The position numbers were made by a program, and so were the translations under genes. DNA of 64,000 nt from Candidatus Velthaea sp. (GTDB taxonomy: Bacteria; Vulcanimicrobiota; Vulcanimicrobiia; Vulcanimicrobiales; Vulcanimicrobiaceae), in NCBI GenBank assembly GCA_050012475.1, contig JBEKHC010000006.1, forward strand, positions 1-64,000, written 5' to 3'. Shown one piece after another: positions 24,459-46,599 of this stretch. Under the pieces are notes generated by a model that saw only the letters and a program-made list of their open reading frames with translations, did not search any database and had not been told where the DNA came from. How positions within the stretch are numbered: the stretch's first letter is position 1; every line of letters begins with the position of its first letter.

Positions 24459-25396
24459 CAGGTTTTGCGGTGCGCGCGCGTGAGCGCGACGAAGACGTCT
24501 TCGAGCGTCGGCTCGATGTCTTGCACGGATTCAACGGGGACGTGAAGATCGCCGGCCAGCCGTTCGCGCGTTGTGGTGTCGTCGACGAGCACGTGCAGCT
24601 CCTGACCGAATATCGTCGCATCGCGAACATACGCGATCTGCCGTGCTTCGCCGAGCGCCTGCACGACGTCGCGGCAATGGGCTTGATAGCGGCGCGTCGC
24701 GGCGGGCGAGACCTCGGGCCGCGCCCGCAGCTCGTCACGCGAACCGGCGGCGACGAGCTGACCGTCCAAGATATAGCCGACCCGGTTGCAGCGTTCGGCT
24801 TCATCCATGTAGTGCGTCGTGACGAACAGCGCAACCCCGCCGCGGCTGAGCGCGAAGAGCAAATCCCAGAGCTCGCGGCGCGCCACCGGATCGATCCCGG
24901 CCGTCGGCTCATCGAGAAACACCACGCGCGGTTCGTGCAGCAGGGCGCCGGCAAGCGCCAAGCGCTGCTTCCAACCCCCCGAGAGCGTGGCTGCGAGTTG
25001 GTCGCGGTACGGCTCGAGTGCCGAGAAGGCAACGAGTTCTTCGATGCGCTGCGCGCGTTTGGCCGTCGAAAGACCGTAGGCGCGGCCATAGAACTGTAAG
25101 TTCTCGAACACCGTGAGATCGCCGTAGAGCGCAAACGATTGCGACATGTAGCCGATCGAGCGGCGGACGTCGTCGCCCTGAGCTTCGATATCGAAGCCGC
25201 AGACGCTCGCCGTTCCGGATGTCGGCTGAACCAGACCGCACAGCATCTTTATCGTGGTCGACTTGCCGCTGCCGTTCGGCCCCAGAAAACCGAAGATCTC
25301 GCCTTCGCGGACGGCCAGTGAAAGCGCGTCGACCACGACCTTCGAGCCGTACTGTTTTTTGAGCGCGCGCGTTTCGATCGCGATCCGATCGATCAC
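24458..25396 (-). CDS. ABC exporter ATP-binding protein
   Basis: GPNGSGKST, LSGGWKQR, LDEPT, TTHYMDE. Confidence 0.95.
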   Translation of the reverse strand: MIDRIAIETRALKKQYGSKVVVDALSLAVREGEIFGFLGPNGSGKSTTIKMLCGLVQPTSGTASVCGFDIEAQGDDVRRSIGYMSQSFALYGDLTVFENLQFYGRAYGLSTAKRAQRIEELVAFSALEPYRDQLAATLSGGWKQRLALAGALLHEPRVVFLDEPTAGIDPVARRELWDLLFALSRGGVALFVTTHYMDEAERCNRVGYILDGQLVAAGSRDELRARPEVSPAATRRYQAHCRDVVQALGEARQIAYVRDATIFGQELHVLVDDTTTRERLAGDLHVPVESVQDIEPTLEDVFVALTRAHRKT

Positions 25397-26505: not shown

Positions 26506-26637
26506 TGCGCCCAGGCTGATACGTGCGAGGTTCGAGAGCGTTCGGGTTCGCCGCGGCTTGTACGTAAGTGGTCGTTTCCTTGCCGATGTCCTTAGCTTGG
26601 AACGCAGCGTCGACCTCGATGGCCCGCCGGCGTCAGC

Positions 26638-27246
26638 TCACCAGCGAATTTCAAACGTGCAGCTCGGCGCGCCGCGTGCCTCGCAGTCCACCTCGACGGC
26701 CCGGGCCCGGGCCGTCACCAGCGCGCGGAACAGCCCCTCGAACGACGCGGCGTAGTAGCTGCACGCCGGGGCCTGCGCCCGCGAGCCGCGACAAACGGGG
26801 CACCCTTCGATCGCGATCCGCGGCGGACGGCCGCCGCGGACGCGCACCGCCCCGCTGCCGGCGAACGTCCAGGTATGCTTGGTGATCGATGCAAGCAAAA
26901 TGGGCGCGACCAAACGCGGCGGCAGCAGCCGCAACAGCGTCTGGGCCGGGCGCGGGATGCGATTGGCCAGCACGTAGTCGGCAGTTTTGTAGCCCGCGAG
27001 CCGCGCCACGAGGTCCGCGTCGATTCCGTCGAGCCGCAGCCGGACGACGCGATAAAGCTCGCTGACGTCGGCTTCGGGAACCATCGTCGAAGGCACGGCG
27101 ACGCCGTACTCACCCAACCCGGCGGCGTGCAACAACTCGCCCGTTGCGGAAGCCCCGATGCGCTCCCGCAACGCTGCGAGGGTCTGGATAATCGCGTTGG
27201 GCCCGATGCGTGCCGATTCGGCGGCAACCGCCGGCCGCGTCACCAC
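26638..27246 (-). CDS. bchJ: BchJ (V4R-domain protein of bacteriochlorophyll synthesis)
   Basis: RIGPNAIIQ, TADYVLANRIP, HTWTFAGSG, CEARGAPSCTFEI; immediately after bchE. Confidence 0.93.
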   Translation of the reverse strand: MVTRPAVAAESARIGPNAIIQTLAALRERIGASATGELLHAAGLGEYGVAVPSTMVPEADVSELYRVVRLRLDGIDADLVARLAGYKTADYVLANRIPRPAQTLLRLLPPRLVAPILLASITKHTWTFAGSGAVRVRGGRPPRIAIEGCPVCRGSRAQAPACSYYAASFEGLFRALVTARARAVEVDCEARGAPSCTFEIRW

Positions 27247-28944
27247 CTAATGCGTGCCGGCGGACCCGGCGATGCCTTCGGCCTGCTCCAGCGTCGCGAG
27301 CTCGGGCAAGTCGTTGGGTGCCCCGCAGACGTTCGCCGTGTCGTGCTCGGGGAGGCCGCCCGGCGCGCCGCACGCGCTCACCAGCGAGGTCGTGGTGTTC
27401 GCGCGGCCCTTGTAATTGACGTCCGCGCTCAGCTCGGGCTTCGCTGCTTTGAGGGCCGCGATCTGCTCGCGGCTGAGCACTTTGGCGGTATCGAAGCCGA
27501 AATCGACATCGGTGCGGTTCCCGCGGAACTTGAGCCGCTCGAGATCGTAGAACTTCTTGGTCGCCGTGCTCTTCAGAAACGCTTTGAGGCAGCCGAGCAT
27601 GTAGCGGCGTTTGAGATTGTCGCCCTTGATCATGAGATACTCGAAGAACGCCTTGTGCATGTAGAAGCGCGCGTAATTGCGCAGCACGCCTTTGAGCACG
27701 TCGGCGCGTTCCATCTCGTCGGGCTTCATGATGGGCGTGACAAAATTGTACTTGGCGTAGTCGCGAACTTCGACGCGGTCGCCGAGATCCTCGAACAACT
27801 CGGCGAACGGCCACGGCGTATACATGTTCCAATTCGCCATGTCGGTCTTCCAGTCACGCGCGTAGCGGTACGTTTCCTCGATCGTCTCTTTCGTTTCGCC
27901 TTCGAGACCGATGATAAACTGCGCTTCGGCAACGATGCCCGCTTCGCGAATGAGTCGAATCGCCTTCTTGTTTTGTTCGATCGTCGTCTGCTTGCGGAAC
28001 AGATCGAGCTTCATCTGCGCGGCTGCTTCGGTGCCGAGCGAGATGTGCAGCAGCCCGGCCTTGCGGTACAGCGGCAGCAGATCGGCGTCGCGCAAAATGT
28101 CGGTCACGCGCGTGTTGATGCCCCAATACACGGGAATCTTGCGCTTGATGAGCTCCTCGCAGAGTTCGATGAACTTCTTGCGGTTGATCGTCGGCTCTTC
28201 GTCGGCCAGAATGAAAAAGCCGACGTTATAATCGCGAACGAGGATCTCGATCTCGTCGACGAATTTCTTGGGATCGCGCGTGCGGTATTTGCGCCAGAAT
28301 TTCCACTGCGAGCAGAAGCGGCACGTGAACGGGCAGCCGCGCGCGAAGTTCGGTACCGCAACGCGGCAGTTGAGCGGGATGTAAATATACTTGTCCCACT
28401 TCAAAATGCTCCAATCCGGCGTGAGCGTGTCGAGGTTCTCGATCACCGGGCGGGCCGGAGTCGCGATGAGCTTGCCGTCTTCGAGAAACGCGAGGCCTTG
28501 GATATTCGCGCGATCGGTTTTGTCGGTTCGCGCGTCGATCGAGCGCAACAGTTCGACGATGATCTCTTCGCCTTCGCCGCGCACGATGTAGTCGATCCAC
28601 GGCGCCTCGGACAGCACCTGCGCGTACATGAACGTCGGATGGATCCCGCCCAAGATCGTGACCGCGCCGGGAACCGCTTCTCTCGCGAGCTTGAGCGTCG
28701 TTTGCGCTTTGTAGATCATCGGCGTGATCGCCGTTGCCATCACGATATCCGGCTTCTTTTCGCGGATCATTTCGCGCAGCTGGTCGTCCTCGATGTGAAA
28801 CGCCATGGCGTCGAGGAACGTGACGTCGTCGAAGCCGGCATGTTTGAGCGCGCCGCCGATGTAGGCCGCCCAACCCGGAGGCCAATTTCCCGCAATCTCC
28901 GCGCCCCCGGCGTGGTAGTTGGGTTGGATCATCAAGATGCGCAT
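27247..28944 (-). CDS. bchE: Anaerobic Mg-protoporphyrin IX monomethyl ester oxidative cyclase
   Basis: [17 protein letters not shown]12-binding domain, [32 protein letters not shown]. Confidence 0.97.
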
Positions 28945-28972
28945 GAAGGCCTCACATTTGCGGCTGCGGTGA

Positions 28973-30160
28973 TCAAACGAGGACGATCTCGGCATCCCTG
29001 GCGATTTGCGCATCGCTGAGGTGACAGGCCGGATCAGGAGCCCACATATCGCCGCTTTCGGCAAGGGCGCGAGAGCGGCAATTTCCGCCGCAGAGGTCGA
29101 GATAACGGCACGCCGCGCAGCGGCCTTTGAGCCGCGGCAGCCGGTCGCGCAAATCGGCCAGCAATTCGCTGCTGGGATCGGTCCAAATTTCGCTGAATTT
29201 TCGGTCCTTGACGTTGCCCAAAGTCGCGCTCTGCCAGTGCCGATCGGGATGGACGTTCCCTTGCGAATCGATGTCGGCGATACCGACACCCGAGGACGAA
29301 CGGCCGCCGCCGGCGCAAGCCAGCGCCGTATACGCGCGGTCGGCGGCGTCCAGCCGGCCTTGCGCGCGCAGCATCAAATAGTAAAACGGGCCGTCGGCGT
29401 CATTGTCGGCCGTGAAGATCCGGCGCCGGTCACCCCGGTCGTCGAATTGCCGCGCTCGCCGCGCGATCGTACGCAGGGCTTGCCGAATGGCATGCCGAGA
29501 CGAGTCGGCTTGGGCATGTCCCCGGCTCGCAGCGACGACGTGCGCGAACGTGACGCGCTCGATCTGCAGGTCGTCGACGAAGTCGAAGATTGCGTCGAGC
29601 TCGCACAGCGTTTGCGGCGTTAACGTGAGCCGCAAACCGACGCACTGCCCAGCCGCCTTGCAATGATGAATACCTTGCAAAGCGCGTTCGAACGCCCGCC
29701 GCTTGCCGCAGTACACATCGTTGGCGGCGCCGATCCCCGCGATGGAGATCTCGACGGAAGCCACCCCGACGTCGCGAATACGGCGCGCAGTGTCGAGATC
29801 GAGCAGCGTGCCGTTCGTACACAGCGTCACGCTCAATCCGAGCGAGCACGCGTATTGCGCCAAATCGAGCGTATCGCGGCGGACCAGCGGTTCGCCGCCG
29901 GAAAAAGCCACCATCGGTACGCCGAATTCGGCCAGATCGTCGAGCAGCGCCCGCCCCTGGGCAGAGCTGAGTTCATCGGGATACGCCACGGCGCTCGAGT
30001 CGGTCTGGCAGCGGATGCACGCCAGATTGCACGTCCGCGTGAGGCTCCAAACGACGACCGGTTTGCGTCCCGCAACGCCGTCGGGCGAATCGCTGCCGCT
30101 GCGGCGGCGTCCAGCGCCGGGCAGCTCAGCGCCGCACACCAGCGCGGTAACGTCGATCAC
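28973..30160 (-). CDS. Radical SAM/SPASM protein, AhbC/NirJ-like
   Basis: [49 protein letters not shown]. Confidence 0.85.
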
Positions 30161-31278
30161 GCAGTGGCGCTCTCGGGCGAACGAACGTACGCCGGGGATC
30201 GATAGACGCAGCACGGTTCGGACCCGAACGCGTCGCCGCTGAACCCATACGCACGTGCACGCGAGCCGCCGCACATCTGGCGGAAATCGCAGCCGCCGCA
30301 CTTTCCGTTCAACCGATCGGGATCGCGCAAACGACGGATGGTGGGATCGTTGCGGTAGACGTCGATGAGCTTCTCTTCGCGCACGTCGCCGACGGCGATC
30401 GGTAGAAATGCGCCGGGAAAGATGCCGCCGGTGTGCGAGACGAACACCAAGCCCTTGCCGTCGCCGATCGCCGGAAAGCGAAAATGATCGGCCTTCGACG
30501 GCCGCTCCTTGACCGGCAGCGTTGCGATCCGCTGAGAAACGAAACGCCGGAAATGCGGCGCTTCGGTCGTCGTCAGCATGAACGGCGCATCTTTCCAAAC
30601 CGCAAAAAGGTCGGCGAATGCCGCCTCGAATCCCTGCGCATCCAGACAATCCTCGATCTCGGGCGCAGTCACGGGCACGGGAAAGGATACCGCCCACAGC
30701 GACGCGTCGAGCCGCGGAATGAGATCGGCGATCGCTTTGATCTGGGACTGATTGTGGCGCGCGAGCGTGGTGTTGATCTGCAGCTCGATGCCGGCTTCGC
30801 GGGCGTGCGCGGCTGCCGTCAGCGTGCGCTCGAACGCGCCTTCGACGCCGCGAAACCCATCGTGGGTTTGGGCGTCAGCCCCGTCCAGGCTCAACGACAT
30901 CCGGCGGCAGCCGGCCGCGGCCAGCCGTTCGAGCGCAGATTTGGTCAGCCGTGCCGTTGCGCTGGGCGACAGCGCAACGCGCAACTCGCGCTGGACTGCG
31001 TACGAGACGATCTCGAAAATATCGGGCCGCACGAACGGATCGCCGCCGGCGAGGATAAAAATCGGCCGGCCGTAGGCGGCAACTTCGTCGACCAGATCGA
31101 AAGCCTCAGCGGTCGTGAGTTCCCGACCGTCACGCTTGGGAATCGACTTCGCACGGCAGTGCACGCAGGTCAAGGCGCAGGCGCGCGTCACCTCCCAAAT
31201 GACGATACGCGGACCGTCGTCGTAGATACTCACGGGCCTACCGTACTTGAGGTTCCCGAAGAACCCAGGAAGAAACAT
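30157..31278 (-). CDS. Radical SAM/SPASM protein, AhbD-like
   Basis: IWEVTRACALTCVHCRA, TTEAPHFRR, DGKGLVFVSHTG, KCGGCDFRQMCGGSRARAY. Confidence 0.85.
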   Translation of the reverse strand: MFLPGFFGNLKYGRPVSIYDDGPRIVIWEVTRACALTCVHCRAKSIPKRDGRELTTAEAFDLVDEVAAYGRPIFILAGGDPFVRPDIFEIVSYAVQRELRVALSPSATARLTKSALERLAAAGCRRMSLSLDGADAQTHDGFRGVEGAFERTLTAAAHAREAGIELQINTTLARHNQSQIKAIADLIPRLDASLWAVSFPVPVTAPEIEDCLDAQGFEAAFADLFAVWKDAPFMLTTTEAPHFRRFVSQRIATLPVKERPSKADHFRFPAIGDGKGLVFVSHTGGIFPGAFLPIAVGDVREEKLIDVYRNDPTIRRLRDPDRLNGKCGGCDFRQMCGGSRARAYGFSGDAFGSEPCCVYRSPAYVRSPESATA

Positions 31279-31425
31279 ATCGGGAGTCCGTACAGTTCCT
31301 TCAACAAACGTTCACACGTTGACGACGCAACGCGTTCCGGAAATTGCCGCGCCAACTCCAGAAATGACGGGGTGAGCGGGGTCGAGAAGCACACGAAGCG
31401 CCGCACAGGCGCGGGAGTTTTCACG

Positions 31426-31824
31426 ATGAAGCGGAGCCTTTTCCTGACCGCGGCCTTGACCGCTCTGACCGCGCCGGCGTCTGCGGCAGGCGTCACCGGC
31501 TGCACGTGCTGCGAAGGCTGGGCCGGCGCGATGAATGCGAAAGGCTACCACACCACCATTCACGAGATCGAACACGCGGCGCGCTTGGCGAAGTTTGCCA
31601 TTCCTGCCGAGTTGGCCGGCTGTCACACCGCGGTTGCCGCGGGTTACCTCATCGAAGGGCACGTGCCGGTCGAGGCCGTCGCGAAACTCCTGCGCGAACG
31701 CCCGAAGACGCGCGGCGTCGCATTGCCCGGGATGCCCAGCGGAACCCCCGGTATGCCCGGGCCGTCGAGCAAAATCGACGTCGTGTTCCTCGACGACCCG
31801 CAGCGCGTCTTCTTTACGCGCTGA
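31426..31824 (+). CDS. DUF411 metal-binding protein
   Basis: CTCCEGW, GCHTA, IEGHVP, LPGMPSGTPGM; GGAG RBS. Confidence 0.9.
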   Translation: MKRSLFLTAALTALTAPASAAGVTGCTCCEGWAGAMNAKGYHTTIHEIEHAARLAKFAIPAELAGCHTAVAAGYLIEGHVPVEAVAKLLRERPKTRGVALPGMPSGTPGMPGPSSKIDVVFLDDPQRVFFTR

Positions 31825-31853
31825 TCGTTGATGTGCGGGCAGGGCCGCGGCTC

Positions 31854-33491
31854 GTGACGCACGCCGTCGAGAATCAGCCGCCCCTGCTGTGTCCGTACAA
31901 TGTGTTCGAGGCCAGCCCGCTGCTGAGCGAAACGCTGGACACGTTCGCGGCAGCCGGCGCCCGGCGGCGATTGAACGAGCTCGGCGCGCTCGCCGGCAGC
32001 GCCAAGGCCATCGGCTGGGGATTCGACGCCAATCGCAATCCGCCGGCCCTCAAGACGTTCGACCGCTTCGGACATCGCATCGACGAAGTCGAATATCATC
32101 CGTCATACCATGCGCTGATGGAGGTCGCGGTCACGCACGGTCTGCACGCATCTTCCTGGTGCGATCCGGCTGGGGGCGCCCACGTTGCGCGCGCCATTGC
32201 GTTCTTCATCTGGAGCCAAGTCGACGCCGGACACGGATGTCCGATCTCGATGACGCATGCATCGATTTCCGCCCTGCGCGTGCAGCCCAATCTTGCCGCG
32301 CTCTGGGAACCCGGCATTCTCGCGGCTGCGTACGACCCCGTGCTGCGGCCGCCGGCCGAAAAACGAGGCCTGCTGCTGGGTATGGCGATGACCGAAAAGC
32401 AAGGCGGCTCCGACGTCCGCGCCAACACGACTCAGGCCGTCGCTACCGGGGCCGGCGGTCCGGGCCAAGAGTATGCGCTAACCGGACACAAATGGTTCTG
32501 CTCCGCTCCGATGTGCGACGCGTTTCTGGCGTTGGCGCAAGCACCGCGCGGGCTCTCGTGTTTCCTCGTGCCACGCATCCTGCCGGACGGAACGCGGAAT
32601 GTTTTCGCCTTGCAGCGGCTCAAAGACAAGCTCGGCAATCGTTCCAATGCCTCCAGCGAAGTCGAGTGGAACGGCACGCTCGCGTATTTAGTCGGCGAAG
32701 AAGGCCGGGGGATTTCGACGATCGTCGAGATGGTCAACTTTACGCGACTCGACTGCATCATCGGTTCGGCCGCCGGCATGCGGCAAGCCGTGACGCAGGC
32801 CGCGCATCATCTTGCGCACCGTTCGGCTTTCGGGAAGATGCTCATCGACCAACCGCTGGCGCAAAACGTGCTCGCTGATCTGGCGATCGAAGCCGAGGCA
32901 GCGGAGCTGACGTTTCTGCGCGCGGCACAGGCGTGCGACCAGGCCGCCCGCGATCCGGCGCAAGCCGCCTTCAAACGCATCGCTACGGCAGTGGGAAAAT
33001 ATTGGGTCTGCAAACGCGCCGCAGCCCACGCCGCCGAAGCGCTCGAATGTTTGGGCGGCAACGGCTACGTCGAAGAGAGCATCATGCCGCGGCTTTATCG
33101 CGAGGCGCCGCTCAACTCGATCTGGGAGGGATCGGGAAACGTCAACGCGCTCGACGTCCTGCGCATCCTGGCCAAAGAGCCCGCAGCGGTCGAAGCGTTT
33201 CATGCTGAGATTGCGACCGTGCGCGGCGCCGACGCGCGCTTCGATGCAGCGTCGGCGGTCCTGCAACGCGAGTTGCGCGATCCGGACGAGCGCGAACGCC
33301 GTGGGCGGCTGCTCGTCGAACGGATGGCGCTGATGCTCCAAGCGTCGCTGCTCGTTCGCTACGGCGATCCGAACGTTGCCGACGCTTTCTGCGCCAGTCG
33401 CCTCGCTGGAGGCGCGGGCCATTGCTTCGGAACCTTGCCGCCCGAGGCCGGCTTCACGGCGATCGTCCGGCGTGCGGCACCGCTCCGATAG
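31854..33491 (+). CDS. aidB: AidB-like acyl-CoA dehydrogenase
   Basis: THAVENQPP, CPISMT, MTEKQGGSD, GHKWFCSAP, IWEGSGN. Confidence 0.92.
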   Translation: MTHAVENQPPLLCPYNVFEASPLLSETLDTFAAAGARRRLNELGALAGSAKAIGWGFDANRNPPALKTFDRFGHRIDEVEYHPSYHALMEVAVTHGLHASSWCDPAGGAHVARAIAFFIWSQVDAGHGCPISMTHASISALRVQPNLAALWEPGILAAAYDPVLRPPAEKRGLLLGMAMTEKQGGSDVRANTTQAVATGAGGPGQEYALTGHKWFCSAPMCDAFLALAQAPRGLSCFLVPRILPDGTRNVFALQRLKDKLGNRSNASSEVEWNGTLAYLVGEEGRGISTIVEMVNFTRLDCIIGSAAGMRQAVTQAAHHLAHRSAFGKMLIDQPLAQNVLADLAIEAEAAELTFLRAAQACDQAARDPAQAAFKRIATAVGKYWVCKRAAAHAAEALECLGGNGYVEESIMPRLYREAPLNSIWEGSGNVNALDVLRILAKEPAAVEAFHAEIATVRGADARFDAASAVLQRELRDPDERERRGRLLVERMALMLQASLLVRYGDPNVADAFCASRLAGGAGHCFGTLPPEAGFTAIVRRAAPLR

Positions 33492-33507
33492 GATACGGTC
33501 CTTATGC

Positions 33508-33553
33508 CATTGCGCTCATTACGCCCAATTGCGCCCATTACGCGCATTACGCC
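33508..33553. repeat. Five tandem 9-10 bp units (CATTRCGCN)
   Basis: cattgcgct cattacgcc caattgcgcc cattacgcg cattacgcc. Confidence 0.8.
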
Positions 33554-33567
33554 GGGAACGAGGTTTG

Positions 33568-33877
33568 CGTAAGAATCGCTTAACAAAAAATGATGTGGAT
33601 CTTCAGCGCAGCGCCGAGCGGCGTTACGTTAGCTTCGTTAAAGACTCTTTACAACCGTAAAGCTGCTTTACAAACGGCCCATACATCGTTAGCGCTCGCG
33701 TCGAATGCGCGACGATGCTTTTCGTTAAAACTGCTTTACACGGATAGCTTCGTACGTCATTTGCGGTCAACGCTGCAAACGGCGATTGCGTAAAAACCAC
33801 TTTACAAACAACGCGTACGCCGCTAACGACGCGCCATCCGGCGCGACGAGGCTTTCGTTAAAACCGCTTTACACGGA
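33568..33877. repeat. Array of six semi-palindromic CGT(T/A)AA...CTTTACA boxes, mostly 66-68 bp apart, forming three ~88-bp units
   Basis: Boxes start at 33568, 33636, 33656, 33723, 33789, 33856; perfect palindrome GTAAAGC-T-GCTTTAC at 33657-33671. Confidence 0.85.
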
Positions 33878-34093
33878 CTAAAGTCCGTAGCTTTTACGGC
33901 GTTAAGAACCATACGGTTGTAATAATTGCCGGGCGATACGATACGAACGTAGCACTTCATGCTGCGCCGCCCGTAGCGCCTATGCCCTAAGGCGTCGGGC
34001 CGCCGGGTTATCTGTTTATCGAGTCAGCTCCGGCCATCAAACTGCCATAGTACGCTCTGCGCTACTATATATAGCGCTTCCCAGAGCAATACA

Positions 34094-34121
34094 ATCCCTG
34101 AACGCTCCGTCGCGCAGGGAT
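34094..34121 (-). terminator. Hairpin terminator after the small peptide gene
   Basis: ATCCCTG/CAGGGAT stem followed on the minus strand by TGTATT, about 10 nt after the stop. Confidence 0.55.
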
Positions 34122-34130
34122 CCGCGGCGA

Positions 34131-34286
34131 CTACCCGGCCAGCGGATGTCCCGTCGACGGCTTCGGCGTGGGCTTGGCAACGGCCGGCGCATAAAAGGCT
34201 GCGGGCGTCGCATGGTTCACGTAGGCAGCAGCGTGCGAACCGGCACCGGACATTGCTGACAGAAGGGCCACGAGAAGGGCGATCAT
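34131..34286 (-). CDS. 51-aa secreted peptide precursor (not in the ORF track)
   Basis: GAGGT RBS, ATG; MIALLVALLSAMSGAGSHAAAYVNHATPAAFYAPAVAKPTPKPSTGHPLAG-stop; followed by a terminator hairpin. Confidence 0.7.
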   Translation of the reverse strand: MIALLVALLSAMSGAGSHAAAYVNHATPAAFYAPAVAKPTPKPSTGHPLAG

Positions 34287-34801
34287 TTAAATTAGACCTC
34301 ACAGCGAGAAGTGCGAACAAAGAAGAAGACCAAGGCAAGTCGACCAACATTTTTGCTGGTCCAAAGACTGATGGACCGAGTTAGACTTGAATGGTTTCAC
34401 GTCAAATTCTGCCGTTGTTAAACGCGGTGGACCGCGTTGACTACGGTAGCTTCCGGGCGGCTGGCCCTTTTTCACACGAGCCTGCCTCCGTATTTTCAGT
34501 ATTCGGTTGCCGTTGGCTGAACTTTATAGTGCTCCAGTATGATTCTGCAGACAACTCTACGAACTTGCAGGTTCCCTCTTTTTCAATGATCGAACGACAT
34601 TAGGCCCTACCGTATTTGCATATAACAACAGTGCCGTGCAATAGGAACATTCGCGTCAATTACTCAGAAACAGTTTGAACGGACGGATGCTCGTCCTTGC
34701 GTTCGACACAATCCGCCTTGAACGCGCAACAGTACAGAAGGCTGGAAATCCTAGCGCCTGCGGTCCAGCAACGCCCGGCAAACGGGTTTAGATTGGGTTC
34801 G

Positions 34802-34834
34802 GGTTCGCCGAATCCGCCGCATTTGGGGCTACGC
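34802..34834 (+). repeat. Degenerate REP-like copy
   Basis: GGTTCGCCGAATCCGCCGCATTTGGGGCTACGC resembles the 14459 and 61483 copies. Confidence 0.5.
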
Positions 34835-34921
34835 ATAAGCCGCAGGGCTCGAGTGGGACGCCCACCCGAGCGAGGCCCAGGCGCCCAGCCAGTCGTCGCG
34901 TGCCGGGTAAACCCGACCGGT

Positions 34922-35911
34922 TCAGGAACGCTTGGTCAAGACGTCGTTCATGGCGTCGATGACTTCGGGATCGAACTGCGTCCCGGAGTGACGGCGCAAC
35001 TCTTCCAAGGCCGTTGCAGGCCGCATGGGCTGCCGATACGGCCGGTTCCCGATCATCGCGTTGAACGAATCGGCGACCGACACGATGCGAGCCGCAAGCG
35101 GGATTTTCGAGGCCGCGAGCCCATCGGGATAACCGCGGCCGTCGAGCCGCTCGTGATGGCCGCGCACCGCCGGCGTGTGCTGCGCCAGCAACGGGATCGC
35201 CGTGATGATCGCGCCTCCGTCTTCAGCATGCCGTCGCATGATGTTCATCTCCCGCGCGGTCAGCTTGCGCGGCGCCGTGAGGATTTCGGGCGGCGTCGTC
35301 ATCTTTCCGATATCGTGGATCAATCCGCAGCGCGACACGTACGTCGTCTCGGTACGCGAAAGCGACATCCGCTTGCCGATGCGCGAGCACCAAACGGAAA
35401 CGGCGCGCGAATGTTCCGCCGTCAATGGATCGGACGCCTCGAGGCGGCTCACCAGTTCGCCGAGCACGACATCGATTTCGTCCAGCGTATCGGTCGCAAC
35501 CAACGCTGCAGGTACGCGCGGACGGCGAATGATGCGATCGATCTCTTCGGCCACTACGTCCAATTCCGACGTCCGGTTGGCCAGGCCCACGTTCAATTCG
35601 CTCACCACGCCGGCTGTCGTCGACGTCGCCGCGCTCAGCAGCCGCGGAATCACCGCCATGTGCGGATACTTCTCGCAGATCCCGTCGACCCACGCAAGCA
35701 AAATCGACCAGTCTCCGCCGGCGATCGCGTCGGCAAACCGCTCGGCGAACGACAGCGCCGTCAGTTCCAGTCCGATGTTGATCTCGCGCCGGCGAACCGA
35801 GCGTTGGATGACTGCGGCTGCAACGGCATACTTCTTCGCTCGAACCGCGTCTGCGATAGCGATTCGATCGTCGCGAATCGGGCTGGCGACGAAGTGTCGC
35901 TCGAACTGCAC
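34922..35911 (-). CDS. HD-GYP phosphodiesterase with helical N-terminal domain
   Basis: EHSRAV, LIHDIGK, HHERLDGRGYP, VADSFNAM...RPY, GTQFDP; starts 7 bp after the regulator stop. Confidence 0.92.
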   Translation of the reverse strand: MQFERHFVASPIRDDRIAIADAVRAKKYAVAAAVIQRSVRRREINIGLELTALSFAERFADAIAGGDWSILLAWVDGICEKYPHMAVIPRLLSAATSTTAGVVSELNVGLANRTSELDVVAEEIDRIIRRPRVPAALVATDTLDEIDVVLGELVSRLEASDPLTAEHSRAVSVWCSRIGKRMSLSRTETTYVSRCGLIHDIGKMTTPPEILTAPRKLTAREMNIMRRHAEDGGAIITAIPLLAQHTPAVRGHHERLDGRGYPDGLAASKIPLAARIVSVADSFNAMIGNRPYRQPMRPATALEELRRHSGTQFDPEVIDAMNDVLTKRS

Positions 35912-35918
35912 GGACGCC

Positions 35919-38564
35919 CTACTTTGCCGTCGTGGAGCGCCGCAACATATCGGCACTTTGTGCCAAAGCCACAGCGTAACGCGGGCTCGTACAGCCCAGC
36001 TTGCGACACAGCGATCGGATCAATGATTCAACCATTTCTTCGGTGCGTCCGGAAAGGAGGGCAATTTCGTCGGCTTTGAGACCCTCGGACAAGTGAATGA
36101 GGACATCCCGCTCGCGGTCGGTAAGCTGAGAGAACTGCTGGGCGAACGTTTCCGGTAAGGGCAACGCTTCGATCAACAGACCGATGCCCCCAAAATCACA
36201 AGCGTCGAGCGTGGCCAGCGCTTCGCGCAGATCAGCCGAGTAGCGGCCACGCGACCAGCGGTCGTTGATGGTTCGAATCGCTTCGACCAGCTGCTGGAAT
36301 CGCGGGGTCAGCGTGTTGGAGCGGCTCAGCCGTGAAAGCAAGCGTGCCGCTCGCTGATGAAAACCGAGCAGCGTCAGCGTCAGGGCAACATACGACTTGG
36401 CGAACGCAACCGCTTTCGCCGACGGCTCTGCTTTAGCGGCAAGCTTCAAAGCCGGCTGCACGGCCGCAACGGCCTCAGCGTGGAGGCCGGCTGCAGCTGC
36501 GTACAGCGCGATCTCGGCGTAGCGCTGCGATTGACGCATTGGAGTGATTTGTTTCTCCGCAGTCGTAGCGAGGAGGCGGTAAGCGCGGTGGAAATCGCCC
36601 GTCCAGGTTGCGCGCAGTGCCTGTGCGGGCAGCAGCATCTCGCTAGCGAACACAGAGTAATTTACTTCAAGGGCCTGAAGTGCCTCGTCCAGGCGCGCGC
36701 TTTCGTGTAAATTTCCCCGCAGCACCTCGATCTCGAACTGGCCGAGCGTAGCGTAAACGAGCAAGTTCCGGCTGCCCGCTTTGATGCTGCACGACGCAAG
36801 CTGATCTAGATACGATCGACCTGCGCGCACGTCGTCTTCGTAGTCCATCGCGATATTGTAAAGAATGCTCAACGCTCGCGCGGCGATGTCGTACAGATGA
36901 GACGCAAACGCGGTCTCGACGGCTTGGCGGGCGTATGCCTTGGCACGTTCGGGATCGCGCGCAAAAAAGGCAACGTATCCGGCCTGAAAATACAACTTCG
37001 CCCGCACCGATGCGTCGCTAACGTCGGAAAGCTGCTCGAGAGCGCGTTCGATCGTCAGTGCGGCAAGCTCGCCTTGTTGATGCGTCGCGTACGCGGTGGC
37101 GAGCAGACCGGCCAGGGAAACGGCAAGCGCGAGGTCGTGTCCGCCCTCCGCGACAATCGGTTGCAGCAGATCGATCGCGTCGCGCCGGTCCTGGCGCACC
37201 AGGTCGGTCGCAAAGCGAAACACGATCGCGCCGCGCTGGCCGAAGTCTTCGACATGCGCGATCGCATCGCGAAACCACGCTTCAGCGACGTCGAAACTTC
37301 CGTGCAGCGATTCCAAGCTCGCCTTCACCGCGAGCGCGACGGGGAATTCAGAAAATTCGACGTCGCTGAGCGCATTGAGCGCCCCGTAGATGAGATCGGT
37401 CTCGCCGCGATCGATCAGCTCGAAACCGCGCTCGCTCAGCAGACGCGCGAGAGGCACCACGTCGTGCAATTCGGTATACAGCTCGATGGCGTCGGTCCAA
37501 CGTCCGACCCGTCCGCAGACGGCGGCCGAGGCCGTGCCGATCTCGCGGTACGAGGGATCGGGACCGGCGCGCAGCCGCTGCTCGAGGAACGCGCGAAATA
37601 ACTCGTGGTAGCGATACCCGCGGGGACCTTCACGGAAGATGATCGCGCCTGCGCTGCAGAGCCGATCGAGCATCGGCGCAGCGTCGTGCCAGCCCGCTGC
37701 TTCGAGCAACGCGACGTCGAAATGCTTGTAGAGGCACGTCTGGAGGAGAAAGCGCCGTTCGTTGTCCGGTCGTGCCGCAAGGGCCCGTTCGGCGAAGTAC
37801 GCGTATGAGTGCGCGTCCGGTTCATCGACGAGCATCGCGAGCCCGGGTATGTCGCTCAAGGCGAGGGCGGTTGCCGCCGGCCAGTTGTCCGTCATGCGGG
37901 AAAGTGCGAGTACCGTCGTGCGCGAGATCGGTGCCCCGGAGCGTTCGACGGCGACGCTTAAATCGTCGGGGGTGAGCGCCAAGTCGATATCGTCCAGCGG
38001 CAAATCGAGCCGATCGTTGGCCAACCAGCGCGCGATCGGAAAACGGTCGGCGCTTTCGGCGACGAGTACCCAACGGATCGTCGTCCGGTCGGTCTGATCG
38101 ACCAGTTCGGTGAGCAGGCCGAATAGCCGTTCATCCGTTACGTTCTGCAGCCCATCGATCATGACGGTAAGGTCGAGCGAGACCAGATGGCCCGCGGCCC
38201 ACGCGGCGATCTTCTTCGGCCCTTCGTCCGCATTGTGCATGCGGTCGTACACGCCCAGGAACGAGGTGCGTAAAGCCGGGACCAGATCGCCCAAGCAATT
38301 CGTAAAGGCCCGCATGAAACCGAGCAAATCGCCCTGATTCGACGCCAGTTCTAGACACCGGTACGGGCGACCAGTGGCTTTGAAGAATTCGCGCAGCACC
38401 GTGCTCTTGCCGAAGCCCGTGGGAGCGGACACCACCAAAATGGGGAAATCGACCGCTCGTTCCAGCCGCTTGAATGCGCGCGTACGGGCCGCAGACAAGA
38501 GCGCTTGCGCGCTATGCCGCGCTGTTGCGGCGGAGGTTTGCACGTGCGACACGATGTCACTCAC
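35919..38564 (-). CDS. MalT-like AAA/helical-repeat/LuxR-HTH regulator
   Basis: Walker A APTGFGKST, WPA, YRYHELF, TPR-like helical region, C-terminal LTDRERDVL...KLG. Confidence 0.88.
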   Translation of the reverse strand: MSDIVSHVQTSAATARHSAQALLSAARTRAFKRLERAVDFPILVVSAPTGFGKSTVLREFFKATGRPYRCLELASNQGDLLGFMRAFTNCLGDLVPALRTSFLGVYDRMHNADEGPKKIAAWAAGHLVSLDLTVMIDGLQNVTDERLFGLLTELVDQTDRTTIRWVLVAESADRFPIARWLANDRLDLPLDDIDLALTPDDLSVAVERSGAPISRTTVLALSRMTDNWPAATALALSDIPGLAMLVDEPDAHSYAYFAERALAARPDNERRFLLQTCLYKHFDVALLEAAGWHDAAPMLDRLCSAGAIIFREGPRGYRYHELFRAFLEQRLRAGPDPSYREIGTASAAVCGRVGRWTDAIELYTELHDVVPLARLLSERGFELIDRGETDLIYGALNALSDVEFSEFPVALAVKASLESLHGSFDVAEAWFRDAIAHVEDFGQRGAIVFRFATDLVRQDRRDAIDLLQPIVAEGGHDLALAVSLAGLLATAYATHQQGELAALTIERALEQLSDVSDASVRAKLYFQAGYVAFFARDPERAKAYARQAVETAFASHLYDIAARALSILYNIAMDYEDDVRAGRSYLDQLASCSIKAGSRNLLVYATLGQFEIEVLRGNLHESARLDEALQALEVNYSVFASEMLLPAQALRATWTGDFHRAYRLLATTAEKQITPMRQSQRYAEIALYAAAAGLHAEAVAAVQPALKLAAKAEPSAKAVAFAKSYVALTLTLLGFHQRAARLLSRLSRSNTLTPRFQQLVEAIRTINDRWSRGRYSADLREALATLDACDFGGIGLLIEALPLPETFAQQFSQLTDRERDVLIHLSEGLKADEIALLSGRTEEMVESLIRSLCRKLGCTSPRYAVALAQSADMLRRSTTAK

Positions 38565-39032
38565 GTGCGAACCCGCCCCTCACGTGCAAGCGTACACGGC
38601 CCGATCGCGAGCGGTCGCCGGGCACAGCGCAAACGACCGCGTCCGACGAACGCCTAGGCGCATCGATCTTCCTTCGCTCTCACTCACCTTAAAATCCAGT
38701 CCGCAGAATAGATCAAAAGTTACGCGTACCGCGCCCGCAGCATTCGCAATAAAATAAACAGTAACAGTTTCGCGCGCTTTCGTCACTGAGAATCGTTCAG
38801 ACTTGACACGCGCCAAGTCAACCAGGCTATAACAACTGCCGCGCGAGCCGATAGACTTCATAATGCTGAAAACGTCCGGGCGCTGGTCGCGTTTGGTTTC
38901 CCGCAGAGGTTGCATGTCAGGTTTCGTACTGCAGCCCGGCTTCTCGTTCGCACGCTCTTCTTGTCGAGCGCAGTGCGACGCGGCGTGCAGCACGTACTGC
39001 GAGCGAACGAGCCGCGTGACGGTTGGCCCGAC

Positions 39033-42014
39033 ATGTTGAGCAAACGGCCGGCGAGCGCATTAGCGCCGCGCGGCACGATCGTGCTGGCGGAAGACGATGC
39101 AGCCACCCGCATCGTTCTGTGCCGAATGCTCTCCAATGAGAATTTCCGTGTCGTCGCCGTCGAAAACGGCCGCCTTGCCTGTGAAGCCGTGCGACGCGAG
39201 CGTCCGGACGTCATCGTGCTGGACTGGCTGATGCCGGTTATGGACGGCCGCGCAGCGGTCGAGGAGTTGAAGTCGAGCGTTCAAACGCGCAGCATCCCGA
39301 TCGTCATGCTCACGAGTCTCTCGCAGGTCGACGAACGGATCATCGCGCTCGAATCGGGCGTGCAAGATTTCTTGAGCAAACCATGCGATCCGCGCGAGCT
39401 GATCGCTTGCATCGAACAGCAGCTGCGCTGGCGCCAGGGTCTGGCCGTCGACGCGGACGCCGCGTTCATTGCCGAACGCGACGCAATCCGCGCGGCGAAC
39501 GAACGCCGGTACCGTTTGCTAACCGAAGCAATGCCGCACATCGTGTGGATCGCGGATTCACACGGAGAGATCACCTATTTCAATCGCGCCTGGTGGGACT
39601 ATGCGGGCGGTTCGCCGGAAAGCAGTGTCGGCGCCCATTGGGCGTCGGCCGTCCATCCGGACGATCGCGCGCGCTCGCAAGCACCTTGGCCCGCGGCGTT
39701 GGCGACCGGAAAACCGTACGAAGTGCAATGCCGTCTGCGGCGCAAGGCGGACGGCATGTATCGCTGGCATCTCGTGCGCGCCATTCCGACGAACGACGAG
39801 CACGGCGCCGTCATCGAATGGGTGGGCTCATGCGCCGACATCCACGACTACAAGATCGCCAGCGAAACGCGCGCTATCCTGGATTCGATCGGCAGCATCG
39901 TGGCAATTCGAACCGAGGACGGCTTCGTCGATTATGCCAGCCCGTGTTGGAATCAGCACACCGGATCGCCCGTCGGTTCGGCGCTAGGCTTCGGCTGGCG
40001 TGACTTCGTCCATCCCGACGACCTGCCCGTCGTCGAGCACAGCCGCACCTCGTTCTCCGCGAGCGACAACGACCCGCACCAATACGAGATGCGGTTGCGC
40101 GGACGCGACGGCCGCTATCGCTGGTTTTTGACGCAGACGACGGTGCTCCCCGAAACGCCCGACGCCCCACACCGCTGGATCGACACATCGACCGACATCG
40201 ACGAGTTCAAGCGCACGCAATCCGCCTTGGCAAATAGCGAAGCGCGCTACCGCGCGCTAACCGACTCGATGCCGCAGCTGGTGTGGGTCATGGGCGAGTC
40301 GGTTTGTGAATACGTCAATCACCGCTGGTCGGAGTACACCGGTTTCGATCTTGGCGCGACGCGCAGCGCCGGTCCCGCTGCGCTCGTCCATGACGACGAT
40401 CGTGCGGCGCTCGAAGCAATTTCGACGGCAGCGCCCGATCTCGAATATACGTGTGAGGCTCGCTTTCGACGCAACGACGGCACGTATCGTTGGCACGCCG
40501 TACGCGCGGTGGCTTTCGACGGCGCAGGTGAAACGTCGCCGAAGTGGATTGGAACCGCGACCGATATCGAAGACAGCAAGGCCGCCGCGACGCTGCTGGC
40601 GGGAACCGCCGCCGCCCTCGAGCATCTCGCCCACCACGATCCGATGACGAACCTGGCCAACCGGCGGCTGCTCGAAGAGCGTCTTTCGCAGGCCATCGCC
40701 TTGGCGCAACGCGCCAAAACCGAAGTGCTCGTGCTTTACCTCGATCTCGATCGCTTCAAGATCGTCAATGATACGCGCGGCCATGCTGCCGGCGACCGCG
40801 TCTTGGCCGTGACGGGCGAACGGATCGCCGACGCGCTGCGTACCGGAGACACGGCCGGACGCGTCGGCGGCGACGAGTTCGTGCTGGTCTGCGCGACATC
40901 GGAGGCAAAACACGAAGCAGGAAGGCTCGCAACTCGTTTGCTCCACGCCGTGAACGAGCCGATCGAGATCGACGGCACATCGGTTAGCATCGGCGTCAGC
41001 ATCGGCATCAGCTTGTATCCGTCCGATGGCACGACCGTCACGGAGTTGATCCGCAAGGCCGACAGTGCGATGTACGCCGCCAAACAAAGCGGCCGCAACT
41101 TGTTTCACCTCTTTCAAGAGGAAACGCACAGCTCCATCGTCGCGGCGATCGAACTCGAGGCAGAGCTCCACGCAGCCGTCGCCGAGCGTCAAATCGTGGT
41201 GCACTACCAGCCGATCGTCAGTCTGCGAACCAACCGGCTCATCGGCGCCGAAGCCCTCGTGCGTTGGCTGCATCCGCAGCGCGGACTGCTGCAGCCCGCC
41301 GATTTTCTGGCCTTTGCCGAACAGCACTGGCTCATGGGCGAGATCAGTGCGATCGTTCTCGACGCCGTCTGCGCGCAGATCGCGGCCCTCGGGCCGAGCG
41401 TCCCCGACGGTTTTCACATCTCGATGAACGTCTCCGCGCGCCAGCTCATCCAACCCGGCTGGGTCGCGCAAGTTGCCGACGCGCTGCGGCTGCACGGTGC
41501 GCAAGCACGGTATTTGCAGATCGAACTAGGCGAAAGCATCGTCACCGCGGAGGCCCGCTCGATTCGGGCGGTGCTCGACGACCTGCGAGCGTTGGGCGTC
41601 TCGCTCTCGATCGATGATTTCGGCACCGGCCTCGGATCGCTGGCGTCGATCAAAGACTTTCCGCTGCACACGCTCAAGATCGACCGCTCGTTCGTCGAGC
41701 GGATCGTCACCAATTCGAGCGATCAAGCCGTGGCCAAAACGATCATCATGCTCGCGCACAGTCTCGGATTCAAGGTCGTGGCAGCGGGCGTCGAAACGCC
41801 GGATCAAATCGCTGCATTGCGAGCTTTCGGATCCGACGCGTTTCAAGGCTACCTCGCCAGCCCGCCGATCGCGGCGGAGGAGCTAACCGCTTTCGTCGCG
41901 CGGCATGAACCGCGCGGCTTGCCGGTCGTGTACGCCGAATTCCAATCGACCGATTCTGCCGAAATCACTACCGTGTCCGGTGGGGCAACCGAACCCGGCC
42001 ACCCCGCCCATTAG
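39033..42014 (+). CDS. REC-PAS3-GGDEF-EAL c-di-GMP enzyme
   Basis: AEDD, LDWLMP, KP; three PAS/PAC repeats (VHPDD...YRW); intact GGDEF; EAL domain with AAGVE. Confidence 0.93.
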   Translation: MLSKRPASALAPRGTIVLAEDDAATRIVLCRMLSNENFRVVAVENGRLACEAVRRERPDVIVLDWLMPVMDGRAAVEELKSSVQTRSIPIVMLTSLSQVDERIIALESGVQDFLSKPCDPRELIACIEQQLRWRQGLAVDADAAFIAERDAIRAANERRYRLLTEAMPHIVWIADSHGEITYFNRAWWDYAGGSPESSVGAHWASAVHPDDRARSQAPWPAALATGKPYEVQCRLRRKADGMYRWHLVRAIPTNDEHGAVIEWVGSCADIHDYKIASETRAILDSIGSIVAIRTEDGFVDYASPCWNQHTGSPVGSALGFGWRDFVHPDDLPVVEHSRTSFSASDNDPHQYEMRLRGRDGRYRWFLTQTTVLPETPDAPHRWIDTSTDIDEFKRTQSALANSEARYRALTDSMPQLVWVMGESVCEYVNHRWSEYTGFDLGATRSAGPAALVHDDDRAALEAISTAAPDLEYTCEARFRRNDGTYRWHAVRAVAFDGAGETSPKWIGTATDIEDSKAAATLLAGTAAALEHLAHHDPMTNLANRRLLEERLSQAIALAQRAKTEVLVLYLDLDRFKIVNDTRGHAAGDRVLAVTGERIADALRTGDTAGRVGGDEFVLVCATSEAKHEAGRLATRLLHAVNEPIEIDGTSVSIGVSIGISLYPSDGTTVTELIRKADSAMYAAKQSGRNLFHLFQEETHSSIVAAIELEAELHAAVAERQIVVHYQPIVSLRTNRLIGAEALVRWLHPQRGLLQPADFLAFAEQHWLMGEISAIVLDAVCAQIAALGPSVPDGFHISMNVSARQLIQPGWVAQVADALRLHGAQARYLQIELGESIVTAEARSIRAVLDDLRALGVSLSIDDFGTGLGSLASIKDFPLHTLKIDRSFVERIVTNSSDQAVAKTIIMLAHSLGFKVVAAGVETPDQIAALRAFGSDAFQGYLASPPIAAEELTAFVARHEPRGLPVVYAEFQSTDSAEITTVSGGATEPGHPAH

Positions 42015-44974: not shown

Positions 44975-46599
44975 GACCGTTCGGTCCTCCAGGCCGCAGC
45001 GTTCCAGGTCGGCAGAAAGGCATTGGGCGCAAACCCGCGGAGCCGGCGCGCGTACGCGTACACGTACGCCGGATTGAACAGATAGACGATCGGCACGGCC
45101 GCCGCGACGCGCCGCTGGACTTGCGCGTAGAGCGCTGCTCGCAGCGCGCGATCGGGTGTGGCGATCGCGCGCCGTTCGAGTTCGTCGACCGCCGGATCGC
45201 ACCAGCGCATGTAGTTGGCCGTTCCACGGCACGTCAGCAGAAAACTGTCGTCGGGGTCGGCGCCCATCGACCACGGCACATAGGCGAGGTCGAAGGCACC
45301 GCCGGCCAGCGTGCCGCCTTGCGACGCGGGCAGAAAAAGCTGCGCGTTCGAGATCGACTTGATCGTGATGGCGATGCCGCGCGCGGCCAGTTCGCTTTGC
45401 ACCACCGTCGCGACGCGGACGCCCGTCGTCGTTTCGGGAAACTGCACGTACGTCAACGCGAGAGCGCGGCCGGCTTGCATCCGCATCCCGCCCGGGCCGC
45501 GTTTCCAGCCTGCTGCGTCGAGCAGCGCGTCGGCGGCGCGCGGATCGTAAGCGGGGAGACGCGCGGCCGGATCGTGCGCCCACGACGTCAGCGGCTGATC
45601 CGTATCGATCGGCGGATACCGTCCATACGTTATTTTGCGGCTGATGCCCGCCCGGTCGATCGACGCCGCCAACGCTCGGCGCACGCGGACGTCGTCGAGC
45701 GGCGGATGCGTCGTGTTGATCGCGATCCCGGCAACCAGCGCGAGCGGCGCGATCGCGTACGCCAGCCCCGGCTTGCCGGCGAGCGCGGCTTGTTGCGCGG
45801 GTGCGATCAGATTCCAGTCGATCGCGTCGCTGCGCAGTAAGGTGAGGTTGGTGCCCGGATCGGGCACGATGTTGAGCTGCAAACGCTGCACGGGCGGGCG
45901 GCCGTGCCAGTACGCCGGATTGGCCTCGTAGATGAGGCGCTCGCCCCGATCCCAACGCACGAAGCGAAAGGGCCCGTTGCCGACCGGATGCGCACCGAAG
46001 GCGTCCTGCGCGAGATTCGCCCGTCCGGCGAGCAGATGCTCGGGCAGCACGTACTGCGGCGCCGTTCCGTAGCTGAAAAACGTCGCCACGGCCGGCGCCC
46101 AAGCCGAGCGCAACCGGATGCGCACGGTTCGGTCATCGAGCCGTTCGGCCGCCGCGATCCGGTCGTAGCCTTCACGCGAACGGACCGGATTGCGCGGATC
46201 CACGATCGCGCGCAGCGTGAAGAGCACGTCCCGCGCGGTCACGAGCGGTCCGTCCTGCCAGTGCACGCCGGGGCGCAGATGATACGTGATGGTCCGCCCG
46301 TCGCGGCTGAGGTCGCCGTTGGCCAATGTCGGTATGCGCGCTAGGAGCACCGGAATCGATTTGCCGCGAGCGTCGATGTCGATGAACGGCTCGAACGCCA
46401 GGCGCGCCACTTGGCCCTCAACGCTGTTGGCATCGACGTGCGCGAAGAGCGGATCGAGCGTGGCCGGATCGGCGGGCAGATCGAACCGGACACTGCTCTG
46501 GGCCGTCCCGGCGGGCGGCTGCGCTCGGCTGCAGCCCCCGAGCGCCGCGGCCACTACCAGCACACAGAAAAGACGGCGCCCGGCCGCGAAGAATCGCAT
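44971..46599 (-). CDS. Peptide ABC substrate-binding protein (family 5), lipoprotein
   Basis: Lipobox LGGC; WQDG..VTARDV, PVGNGPF, VRRAL. Confidence 0.92.
   Translation of the reverse strand: MRFFAAGRRLFCVLVVAAALGGCSRAQPPAGTAQSSVRFDLPADPATLDPLFAHVDANSVEGQVARLAFEPFIDIDARGKSIPVLLARIPTLANGDLSRDGRTITYHLRPGVHWQDGPLVTARDVLFTLRAIVDPRNPVRSREGYDRIAAAERLDDRTVRIRLRSAWAPAVATFFSYGTAPQYVLPEHLLAGRANLAQDAFGAHPVGNGPFRFVRWDRGERLIYEANPAYWHGRPPVQRLQLNIVPDPGTNLTLLRSDAIDWNLIAPAQQAALAGKPGLAYAIAPLALVAGIAINTTHPPLDDVRVRRALAASIDRAGISRKITYGRYPPIDTDQPLTSWAHDPAARLPAYDPRAADALLDAAGWKRGPGGMRMQAGRALALTYVQFPETTTGVRVATVVQSELAARGIAITIKSISNAQLFLPASQGGTLAGGAFDLAYVPWSMGADPDDSFLLTCRGTANYMRWCDPAVDELERRAIATPDRALRAALYAQVQRRVAAAVPIVYLFNPAYVYAYARRLRGFAPNAFLPTWNAAAWRTERS

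Follow-up and report, generated by a model that had tools for sequence, protein, structure and literature searches.

Background

Signalling by a propeptide and a cytoplasmic receptor has been described for Gram-positive Firmicutes: in the RRNPP systems (Rap/Phr, NprR/NprX, PlcR/PapR and AimR/AimP), a small signal-bearing propeptide gene directly adjoins the gene of a helical-repeat receptor, which is a TPR protein of 250-500 amino acids, and the propeptide measures 10-100 amino acids (criteria from the accessible part of PMC10075063). The locus described here lies in a stretch of 64,000 nucleotides from Candidatus Velthaea sp. of the phylum Vulcanimicrobiota (GenBank contig JBEKHC010000006.1, positions 1 to 64,000; hereafter the window), where genes for a MalT-like STAND protein (the regulator) and an HD-GYP protein are followed by a 51-codon gene (Table 1) that probably encodes an exported peptide signal. 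Its conserved C-terminal peptide, the locus-specific peptide variants in the wider family and the propeptide length (45-52 amino acids in 22 aligned members) are RRNPP-like, but the putative receptor has 881 amino acids with an N-terminal STAND NTPase, the HD-GYP gene and a 635-bp spacer separate it from the small gene, the host belongs to a Gram-negative lineage, and in most relatives the peptide is embedded in a protease. By this comparison the locus is not a member of RRNPP, the group invoked for it in an earlier, sequence-only reading, and it would work in RRNPP-like fashion only if the model proposed below holds.

The ligand of MalT is a sugar. Like E. coli MalT (8bob) and other STAND proteins of the LAL type, the window's protein has an NTPase with a Walker A motif, putative helical and TPR-like regions and a C-terminal LuxR-type helix-turn-helix (HTH), but it falls below the MalT equivalog cut-off, has Gly in place of the second Walker B acid and a degenerate recognition helix, is not near maltodextrin genes, and belongs to proteins paired or fused with HD-GYP. 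The HD-GYP protein shares catalytic and metal-binding motifs and a predicted globin-like N-terminal domain with sensor-bearing phosphodiesterases (PmGH, VCA0681 and globin-coupled HD-GYP proteins), but differs at the positions equivalent to D308 (Asn/His) and E185 (Leu) and in having an N-terminal domain without a credible Pfam match, for which any haem or bilin binding would be hypothetical. The S53-like (sedolisin-type) subtilase lipoproteins of sister loci resemble the small gene product in occupying the slot behind the regulator and HD-GYP genes and in being built of a signal-like sequence followed by a linker and then by a unit that is short and resembles xx[HR][AG]L[PA]G; unlike them, the small product lacks Cys, lipobox and catalytic domain, and its one, terminal unit has Pro at position 5, Ala at position 7 and a Pro-rich stretch before it. 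No published description of such a system was found among literature listings and the openings of abstracts, of which the broader sets were covered for their top matches; the accessible part of 10.1101/2024.03.06.583649 does not describe a STAND/HD-GYP peptide system, and the architecture tables of the HD-GYP paper cited below could list a related fusion.

Table 1. Features of the locus in window coordinates
Feature	Position	Strand	Remarks
MalT-like STAND protein, 881 aa	35919..38564	-	NTPase, helical/TPR sensor ~430-805, degenerate LuxR-type HTH ~810-868
HD-GYP protein, 329 aa	34922..35911	-	Predicted globin-like N-terminal domain and HD-GYP domain
Sigma-28 (FliA/SigD)-type promoter-like site TAAAGTTC-N11-ACCGAATA	34500..34526	-	240 nt before the small open reading frame
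Ribosome-binding site TGAGGT	34296..34301	-	GAGG core kept in 11/11 loci compared
Small gene, 51 aa	34131..34286	-	N-terminus hydrophobic, signal-like and free of basic residues; Ala/His/Pro linker variable; tail conserved
Codons for conserved tail TGHPLAG and stop	34131..34154	-	Candidate mature signal
GC-rich hairpin past the stop	34109..34131	-	U run absent; candidate only
Divergent REC-PAS3-GGDEF-EAL gene	39033..42014 (longest open reading frame starts 38910)	+	System membership uncertain

Results and Discussion

The small gene

Because of its synteny, its single-copy presence throughout the genus and the conservation of its tail in front of three different stop codons, the 51-aa open reading frame (ORF) is, as far as sequence comparison can tell, a real gene. 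The features for which it had been singled out (a hydrophobic N-terminus, an AxA-type site, an Ala/Pro linker and the tail STGHPLAG) are present, as is its own ribosome-binding site, 9 nt ahead of the ATG. Orthologues of the HD-GYP gene (66-80% identity) were found in all three further members of the genus set (genomes G001, G002 and G003; the window's genome is G000), and the DNA downstream was then read: each is followed by an ORF for 45-49 amino acids that has a GAGG site, starts with hydrophobic residues and ends in H[PA]LAG. The small gene thus follows an orthologous regulator/HD-GYP pair in 4/4 genomes, which bears out the conservation on which the earlier proposal depended. The stop codons at these four loci are TAG, TAA, TGA and TAA, and pN/pS (nonsynonymous relative to synonymous polymorphism) over the last seven codons is 0.26, an unbiased value in that the loci were located by synteny alone; the dN/dS (nonsynonymous relative to synonymous substitution) of 0.07 over 11 loci is biased, since seven of them were retrieved by a DNA pattern that demands the tail (true hits numbered 9 in metagenomes, with 1 false, and 2 in genomes, with 9 false).

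A profile search retrieved 21 database proteins among 102 candidates, one being the window's gene itself in a shortened call and a further four having been called with upstream extensions. Across 22 aligned members, A3, P43, H47, L49, A50 and G51 are invariant and the linker differs by in-frame insertions and deletions. Searched against 401 genomes of the phylum, this alignment matched four, all in the genus and with a single copy each, and found the gene in none of the other 397; no paralogue of the peptide was found in its own genome, and there was no match in Pfam, NCBIfam or the ESM Atlas. The hydrophobic run spans about 12 residues, Lys and Arg are absent from the first 12 residues in 22/22 members, and many other apparently secreted proteins of the window's genome share such short N-termini free of basic residues. 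Cys or a lipobox occurs in 0/22. The sequence G-[SAN]-H follows the hydrophobic stretch in 16/22 peptides (window 34230-34241, residues 16-18); ATCUN-type (amino-terminal copper- and nickel-binding) motifs bind Cu or Ni, and cleavage just ahead of G-[SAN]-H, if it occurs, would give a mature N-terminus of this type.

The downstream genes, which lie 75 to more than 1100 nt away, vary: among them are a convergent acyl-CoA dehydrogenase, radical SAM genes of two different kinds and a gene resembling thiamine-diphosphate enzymes. A role as precursor of a ribosomally synthesised and post-translationally modified peptide (RiPP) was rejected on account of the radical SAM neighbours, which differ between genomes. 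RNA contigs from four runs of one study do not cover the small ORF, which has no bearing on its expression; those nearby, of 167 nt (matching 33933-34099) and 264 nt (34897-35160), are likewise uninformative.

Sites around the small gene

Promoters of the sigma-28 (FliA/SigD) type have the form TAAA-N15-CCGA. A conserved site of the form TAAAGT[TC]-N11/12-[AGC]CCGA, overlooked in the earlier reading, precedes the small genes by 170-240 nt and scores 18-21 against a sigma-28 consensus in 12/12 loci with 300 nt upstream, although two of the twelve are near-duplicates of others and the motif was first spotted by eye in four loci, so that the scoring is partly post hoc; one further locus had only 22 nt upstream. 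As background, 4.3% of 1616 upstream regions in the window's genome score at least 18. Flagellin and flgF of this genome are preceded by sites of the same form, and FliA was detected above cut-off in G000, G001 and G002 and not found in G003, a genome that is 90% complete. FlgM and RsiG were not found in G000 by Pfam models, of which that for RsiG matched no control, and no link from cyclic di-GMP (c-di-GMP) to sigma-28 could therefore be drawn. Three tandem, near-identical flagellin genes lie on contig C93 (3547-7848) of the same genome.

The spacer in front of the small gene is, as had been noted, of lower GC content (53.5% over its 635 bp, in a genome of 64% GC). The intrinsic terminator ascribed to the gene was not confirmed: a minus-strand scan returned no terminator-like site, and the position of the hairpin past the stop is not conserved among 11 loci.

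A regulator family that adjoins sources of short peptides

The regulator family occurs in 143 of the 401 genomes, all in one taxonomic family. From the best-scoring or large-contig matches, a subset of all matches, 140 loci were collected (20 by similarity to the HD-GYP protein, 60 to the regulator and 60 to the protease); 92 hold a regulator and 48 are regulator-free by match. These STAND genes adjoin a source of short, locus-specific peptides, mostly within an adjacent protease and otherwise in free-standing propeptides, and the predicted co-occurrence of similar peptides with the regulator family is thereby upheld. An S53-like protease (subtilase; identified by a Pfam S8 match together with S53-type motifs) is adjacent at 72/92 regulator loci, one of which (L073) is from an unpublished genome. 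The linkers of these proteases, between lipobox and catalytic domain, carry locus-specific units of 7-9 residues, often in tandem, such as ESAAGLPG (six times), DTAMGMPG, EGANALPG, GARAIPI and ESGRALPG. Tandem repeats are present in 48/72 directly adjacent proteases versus 1/55 proteases with no regulator in the locus, six proteases of intermediate position, none with repeats, having been set aside; among the 60 loci chosen by protease alone, the figures are 6/15 for regulator-adjacent and 1/55 for regulator-free proteases. The sole repeat-bearing protease without a regulator in the fetched locus (L173:6480-8060, minus strand) has SAYPI units.

Across 58 protease loci, three loci with a wrongly picked unit having been excluded, the distance between units tracks the distance between TPR regions when catalytic domain and NTPase are controlled for (partial r 0.23, reached in 0/300 permutations), and distances of the catalytic domain and the NTPase show no residual relation to unit distance (0.07 and 0.04); the loci are related by descent, so that the Fisher and Mantel values for these associations are overstated, which counts against them to that extent. 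Proteases of a distinct subgroup (G000 contigs C12 and C68, loci L008 and L015) are marked by a linker motif of the type RxLRxPLG; the gene precedes its regulator at C12, L008 and L015, and near the copy on C68 there is no regulator.

At the 20 regulator loci that lack the protease, the slot is taken by the Velthaea peptide (3), a multi-copy propeptide (7), a frameshifted protease (1) or a different repeat protein (1). The seven multi-copy propeptides are secreted-looking proteins of 85-105 amino acids with 2-5 units each (DVPSAVPG, DSVTAKPG, DSASAVPG, DSGAAVPG, DIPHAMP, GQPRALPS and AGPKAQPS), the first of which begins at an apparent signal-peptidase site. An eighth such gene is found in L017, a locus in which the contig ends within the regulator match; in the 48 loci without a regulator match, tandem repeats occur in 2/156 small signal-like ORFs, one of them being this gene. 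In L010, L012, L013 and L017, a gene for about 189 amino acids lies after the HD-GYP gene and a convergent multi-copy propeptide gene; its product, in which a LuxR-like HTH was recognised by eye in L017, may provide a DNA-binding output for HTH-less regulators. The different repeat protein (L006:5224-5433, minus strand) is a secreted-looking 69-aa product with KLPH[IV]/KTPHV repeats and a sigma-28-like site (score 19), lying behind a regulator and two HD-GYP genes.

Place of the window's locus in the family

In a tree of 95 sensor regions (FastTree, midpoint root), the four Velthaea regulators form a clade (support 1.0) that is sister (0.991) to loci of the order regulator, HD-GYP, protease, the units of which are of the RALP/HALPG type (ESGRALPG, YISHALPG, NQSRALPA). 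Because the window's regulator clade is sister to these protease-bearing loci, the small gene, judged by position and phylogeny, is the occupant of the peptide slot that the protease holds there. A family motif learned from 79 sequences, none of them from Velthaea, ranks the C-terminal window first in 16/22 peptides, and the tail of G002 (ISAHALAG) scores 11.0 bits, a value that real units also reach. When compared with the nine sister units, the window's tail ranks among the best 3% of 2913 background windows.

Several observations weigh against reading the small gene as the exported signal of this family. The tail STGHPLAG scores 0.2 bits under the family motif, within the top 1.5% of background, versus a leave-one-out median of 13.4 for real units; its mean BLOSUM score against the nine sister units is 5.7, where the units among themselves reach 16-23, and the C-terminal window is the best match to these units in only 6/22 peptides. 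The tail is also single-copy and nearly invariant throughout the genus, unlike the multi-copy, variable units elsewhere. The link between the small gene and the family motif is therefore drawn from its position, from the form that the tail takes in G002 and from the tail's invariance, rather than from close similarity. The sigma-28-like site is not family-wide (score of at least 18 at 0/16 other HD-GYP loci, 1/8 sister loci and 0/8 free-standing multi-copy genes); among the metagenome loci, the HD-GYP gene is seen upstream of the small gene in only 4/9, and of the other five, which have 22-765 nt upstream, two (706 and 765 nt) might be long enough to have revealed it. At the level of the family, no candidate peptide was found at 8/20 protease-less regulator loci, some of which end at contig edges, and the repeat in L006 differs from the family units.

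The STAND and HD-GYP proteins

The assignment of the regulator as MalT-like is sustained by weak AAA, TPR_MalT (24 bits, E 2.7e-5; cut-off 45) and GerE (23.1 bits; cut-off 23.5) matches, all below the Pfam cut-offs, and by a match of the family profile to the solved MalT structure 8bob (E 1.3e-37, residues 12-400); the NCBIfam MalT equivalog (NF003420) gives 85 bits, below its cut-off of 537. Walker A is intact (APTGFGKST), but Walker B in the peptide clade reads IDGL instead of IDDL. The second acid has been lost in 20/40 HD-GYP-linked members versus 1/50 other members of the family; in MalT, its loss reportedly slows hydrolysis. In the recognition helix of the HTH, the TxDxH pattern retained by the sister clade is gone, and because this LuxR-type helix looks degenerate, the word regulator may not imply DNA binding here. 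Within the Velthaea clade, the first TPR stretch is the most conserved part of the protein (80% identity versus 62-73% elsewhere). The window's genome has six paralogues, three of which fuse STAND-TPR to HD-GYP; in these fusions the regulator match stops at residue 802, ahead of the HTH. The sixth paralogue (on contig C22, in the region of about 25300-40500), excluded from the tree by the coverage cut, has no HD-GYP, and its neighbours (cyclodehydratase/YcaO-like, oxidase-like and ABC exporter genes) resemble a RiPP cluster by eye.

The gap of 7 bp between the regulator and HD-GYP genes, reported in the earlier reading, applies if the HD-GYP gene begins with the GTG at 35911; its longest ORF, which begins at 35956, overlaps the regulator stop. 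The HD-GYP protein has the HD, HHExxDGxGYP and metal-binding His/Asp motifs and RxYR (here RPYR), with roles as described in the accessible part of 10.1101/2021.11.05.467447, according to which Leu at the E185 position, as found here, indicates the binuclear class. In our mapping of residues, the equivalent of D308 of PmGH is Asn in the window's protein, a point against its activity, and Asn or His throughout the cassette family; D308 is needed in PmGH, yet VCA0681 is active without it (PMC4212101, accessible part).

The N-terminal domain, modelled at a pLDDT (predicted local distance difference test) of 89, is predicted to be globin-like (Z 12.0, root-mean-square deviation 2.7 and 118 residues aligned to 4xxi; Z 9.8 for RsbR-N), although a Z of 12 is below the level deemed safe for helical bundles and indicates a fold at most. 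Foldseek returned nothing for this model at E 0.001 or better, no credible Pfam match and no ESM Atlas match was found, and only 81 relatives exist among 1.84 billion representatives. A single-sequence fold of the HD-GYP protein (pLDDT 38.8) was dropped. The best structural matches of the domain (window 35444-35911, minus strand) are bilin-binding domains (ApcE and photocobilins); W74 is invariant throughout the family and C79 in the genus clade.

A possible mechanism and its alternatives

On balance, we lean towards the 51-aa gene as the source of a cognate exported signal for the STAND/TPR protein, with the HD-GYP enzyme as the probable output. Sigma-28 would transcribe the small gene, and its product would be exported by Sec through a short signal lacking an n-region. 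Cleavage of the propeptide, for which S53-like paralogues are candidate proteases, would release the conserved tail xTGHPLAG, which could be re-imported through a family-5 ATP-binding cassette (ABC) importer and would then bind to the STAND protein encoded nearby, at its helical sensor. The STAND protein would switch the co-encoded HD-GYP enzyme, and thus the cyclic-dinucleotide level, controlling HD-GYP rather than DNA. The window's genome holds 13 family-5 binding proteins. The accessible part of a description of a cultured relative in the phylum (PMC9758169) reports a Gram-negative envelope, which is an obstacle to this mechanism because the signal must then cross two membranes or remain periplasmic.

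The small gene may instead encode an independent, sigma-28-driven exported or membrane peptide of the motility programme that came to lie behind the HD-GYP gene once the protease gene had been lost, leaving the receptor orphaned or sensing something else. Its promoter-like site, of the same form as at flagellin and flgF, the weak match of its tail to the family motif, and the altered HTH and Walker B of the receptor would all suit such a history, but we consider it unlikely: an orphaned receptor would not be expected to have its first TPR stretch as the most conserved part, the G002 tail fits the family motif well, and free-standing propeptides have replaced the protease in other clades too. 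Somewhat more doubtful still is that the octapeptides act on the proteases, as self-cleavage sites or inhibitory propeptides, with the free-standing forms being decoy substrates or inhibitors that the cassette produces as output. Most units do sit inside proteases, and in these the S53-type catalytic motifs are intact (E-x-x-h-D in 57/58, xGD in 54/58 and GTS in 56/58), and the window's genome encodes five such proteases, two with sigma-28-like sites; yet homologous regulator-free proteases carry repeats in almost no case and so do not need them, and the unit sequence is tied more closely to the TPR region of the receptor than to the catalytic domain encoded in the same gene. The signal-like N-terminus, variable linker and invariant tail beside the stop also recall SecM-type arrest peptides and ssrA-like tags, but a leader that acts in cis or arrests the ribosome from within its tunnel, or a C-terminal degron that directs the product to proteases, is very improbable, there being no conserved downstream gene and three types of stop codon in use; transfer-messenger RNA was not found.

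The exported-signal interpretation agrees with the sequence-only reading in its conserved ORF and co-occurring peptides; the comparison with RRNPP drawn there is an analogy. More broadly, and at a little below an even chance, a family of Vulcanimicrobiota may possess its own class of peptide signalling, in which STAND (NLR-like) ATPases would be cytoplasmic receptors of octapeptides that the bacterium itself encodes, the output being DNA (through the LuxR helix) or c-di-GMP (through a paired or fused HD-GYP) and the peptide coming interchangeably from protease-tether repeats, a multi-copy propeptide or a single-copy sigma-28 propeptide. If so, propeptide/receptor logic would have been invented independently, on the basis of STAND ATPases, in a soil phylum that is Gram-negative; dozens of MalT-like orphan regulators would have named candidate ligands, and there would be a direct tie between a secreted peptide and the turnover of c-di-GMP. 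No case is simpler than the window's locus, with one receptor, one enzyme and one eight-residue candidate, and so can be tested with purified proteins and synthetic peptides, with no culture needed; natural receptor/peptide pairs permit comparison of cross-specificity.

Neighbouring genes

The remaining observations of the sequence-only reading were confirmed except in one respect: the gene transcribed divergently from the regulator, which it labelled a diguanylate cyclase, is no plain cyclase but a REC-PAS-PAS-PAS-GGDEF-EAL hybrid. It is syntenic in the genus only, tblastn having found it at 0/8 sister-clade loci. A family-5 ABC substrate-binding protein is encoded at 45214-46332 (minus strand), about 7 kb from the regulator and beyond glnA. 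The low-GC spacer that separates the small gene from a convergent AidB-like acyl-CoA dehydrogenase gene contains an imperfect direct repeat of about 35 bp (33842-33876 and 33707-33743, minus strand), noticed by eye. A radical SAM pair and a bchE-like gene occupy 26638-31278 (minus strand) in the window, and in G003 this block directly follows the small gene.

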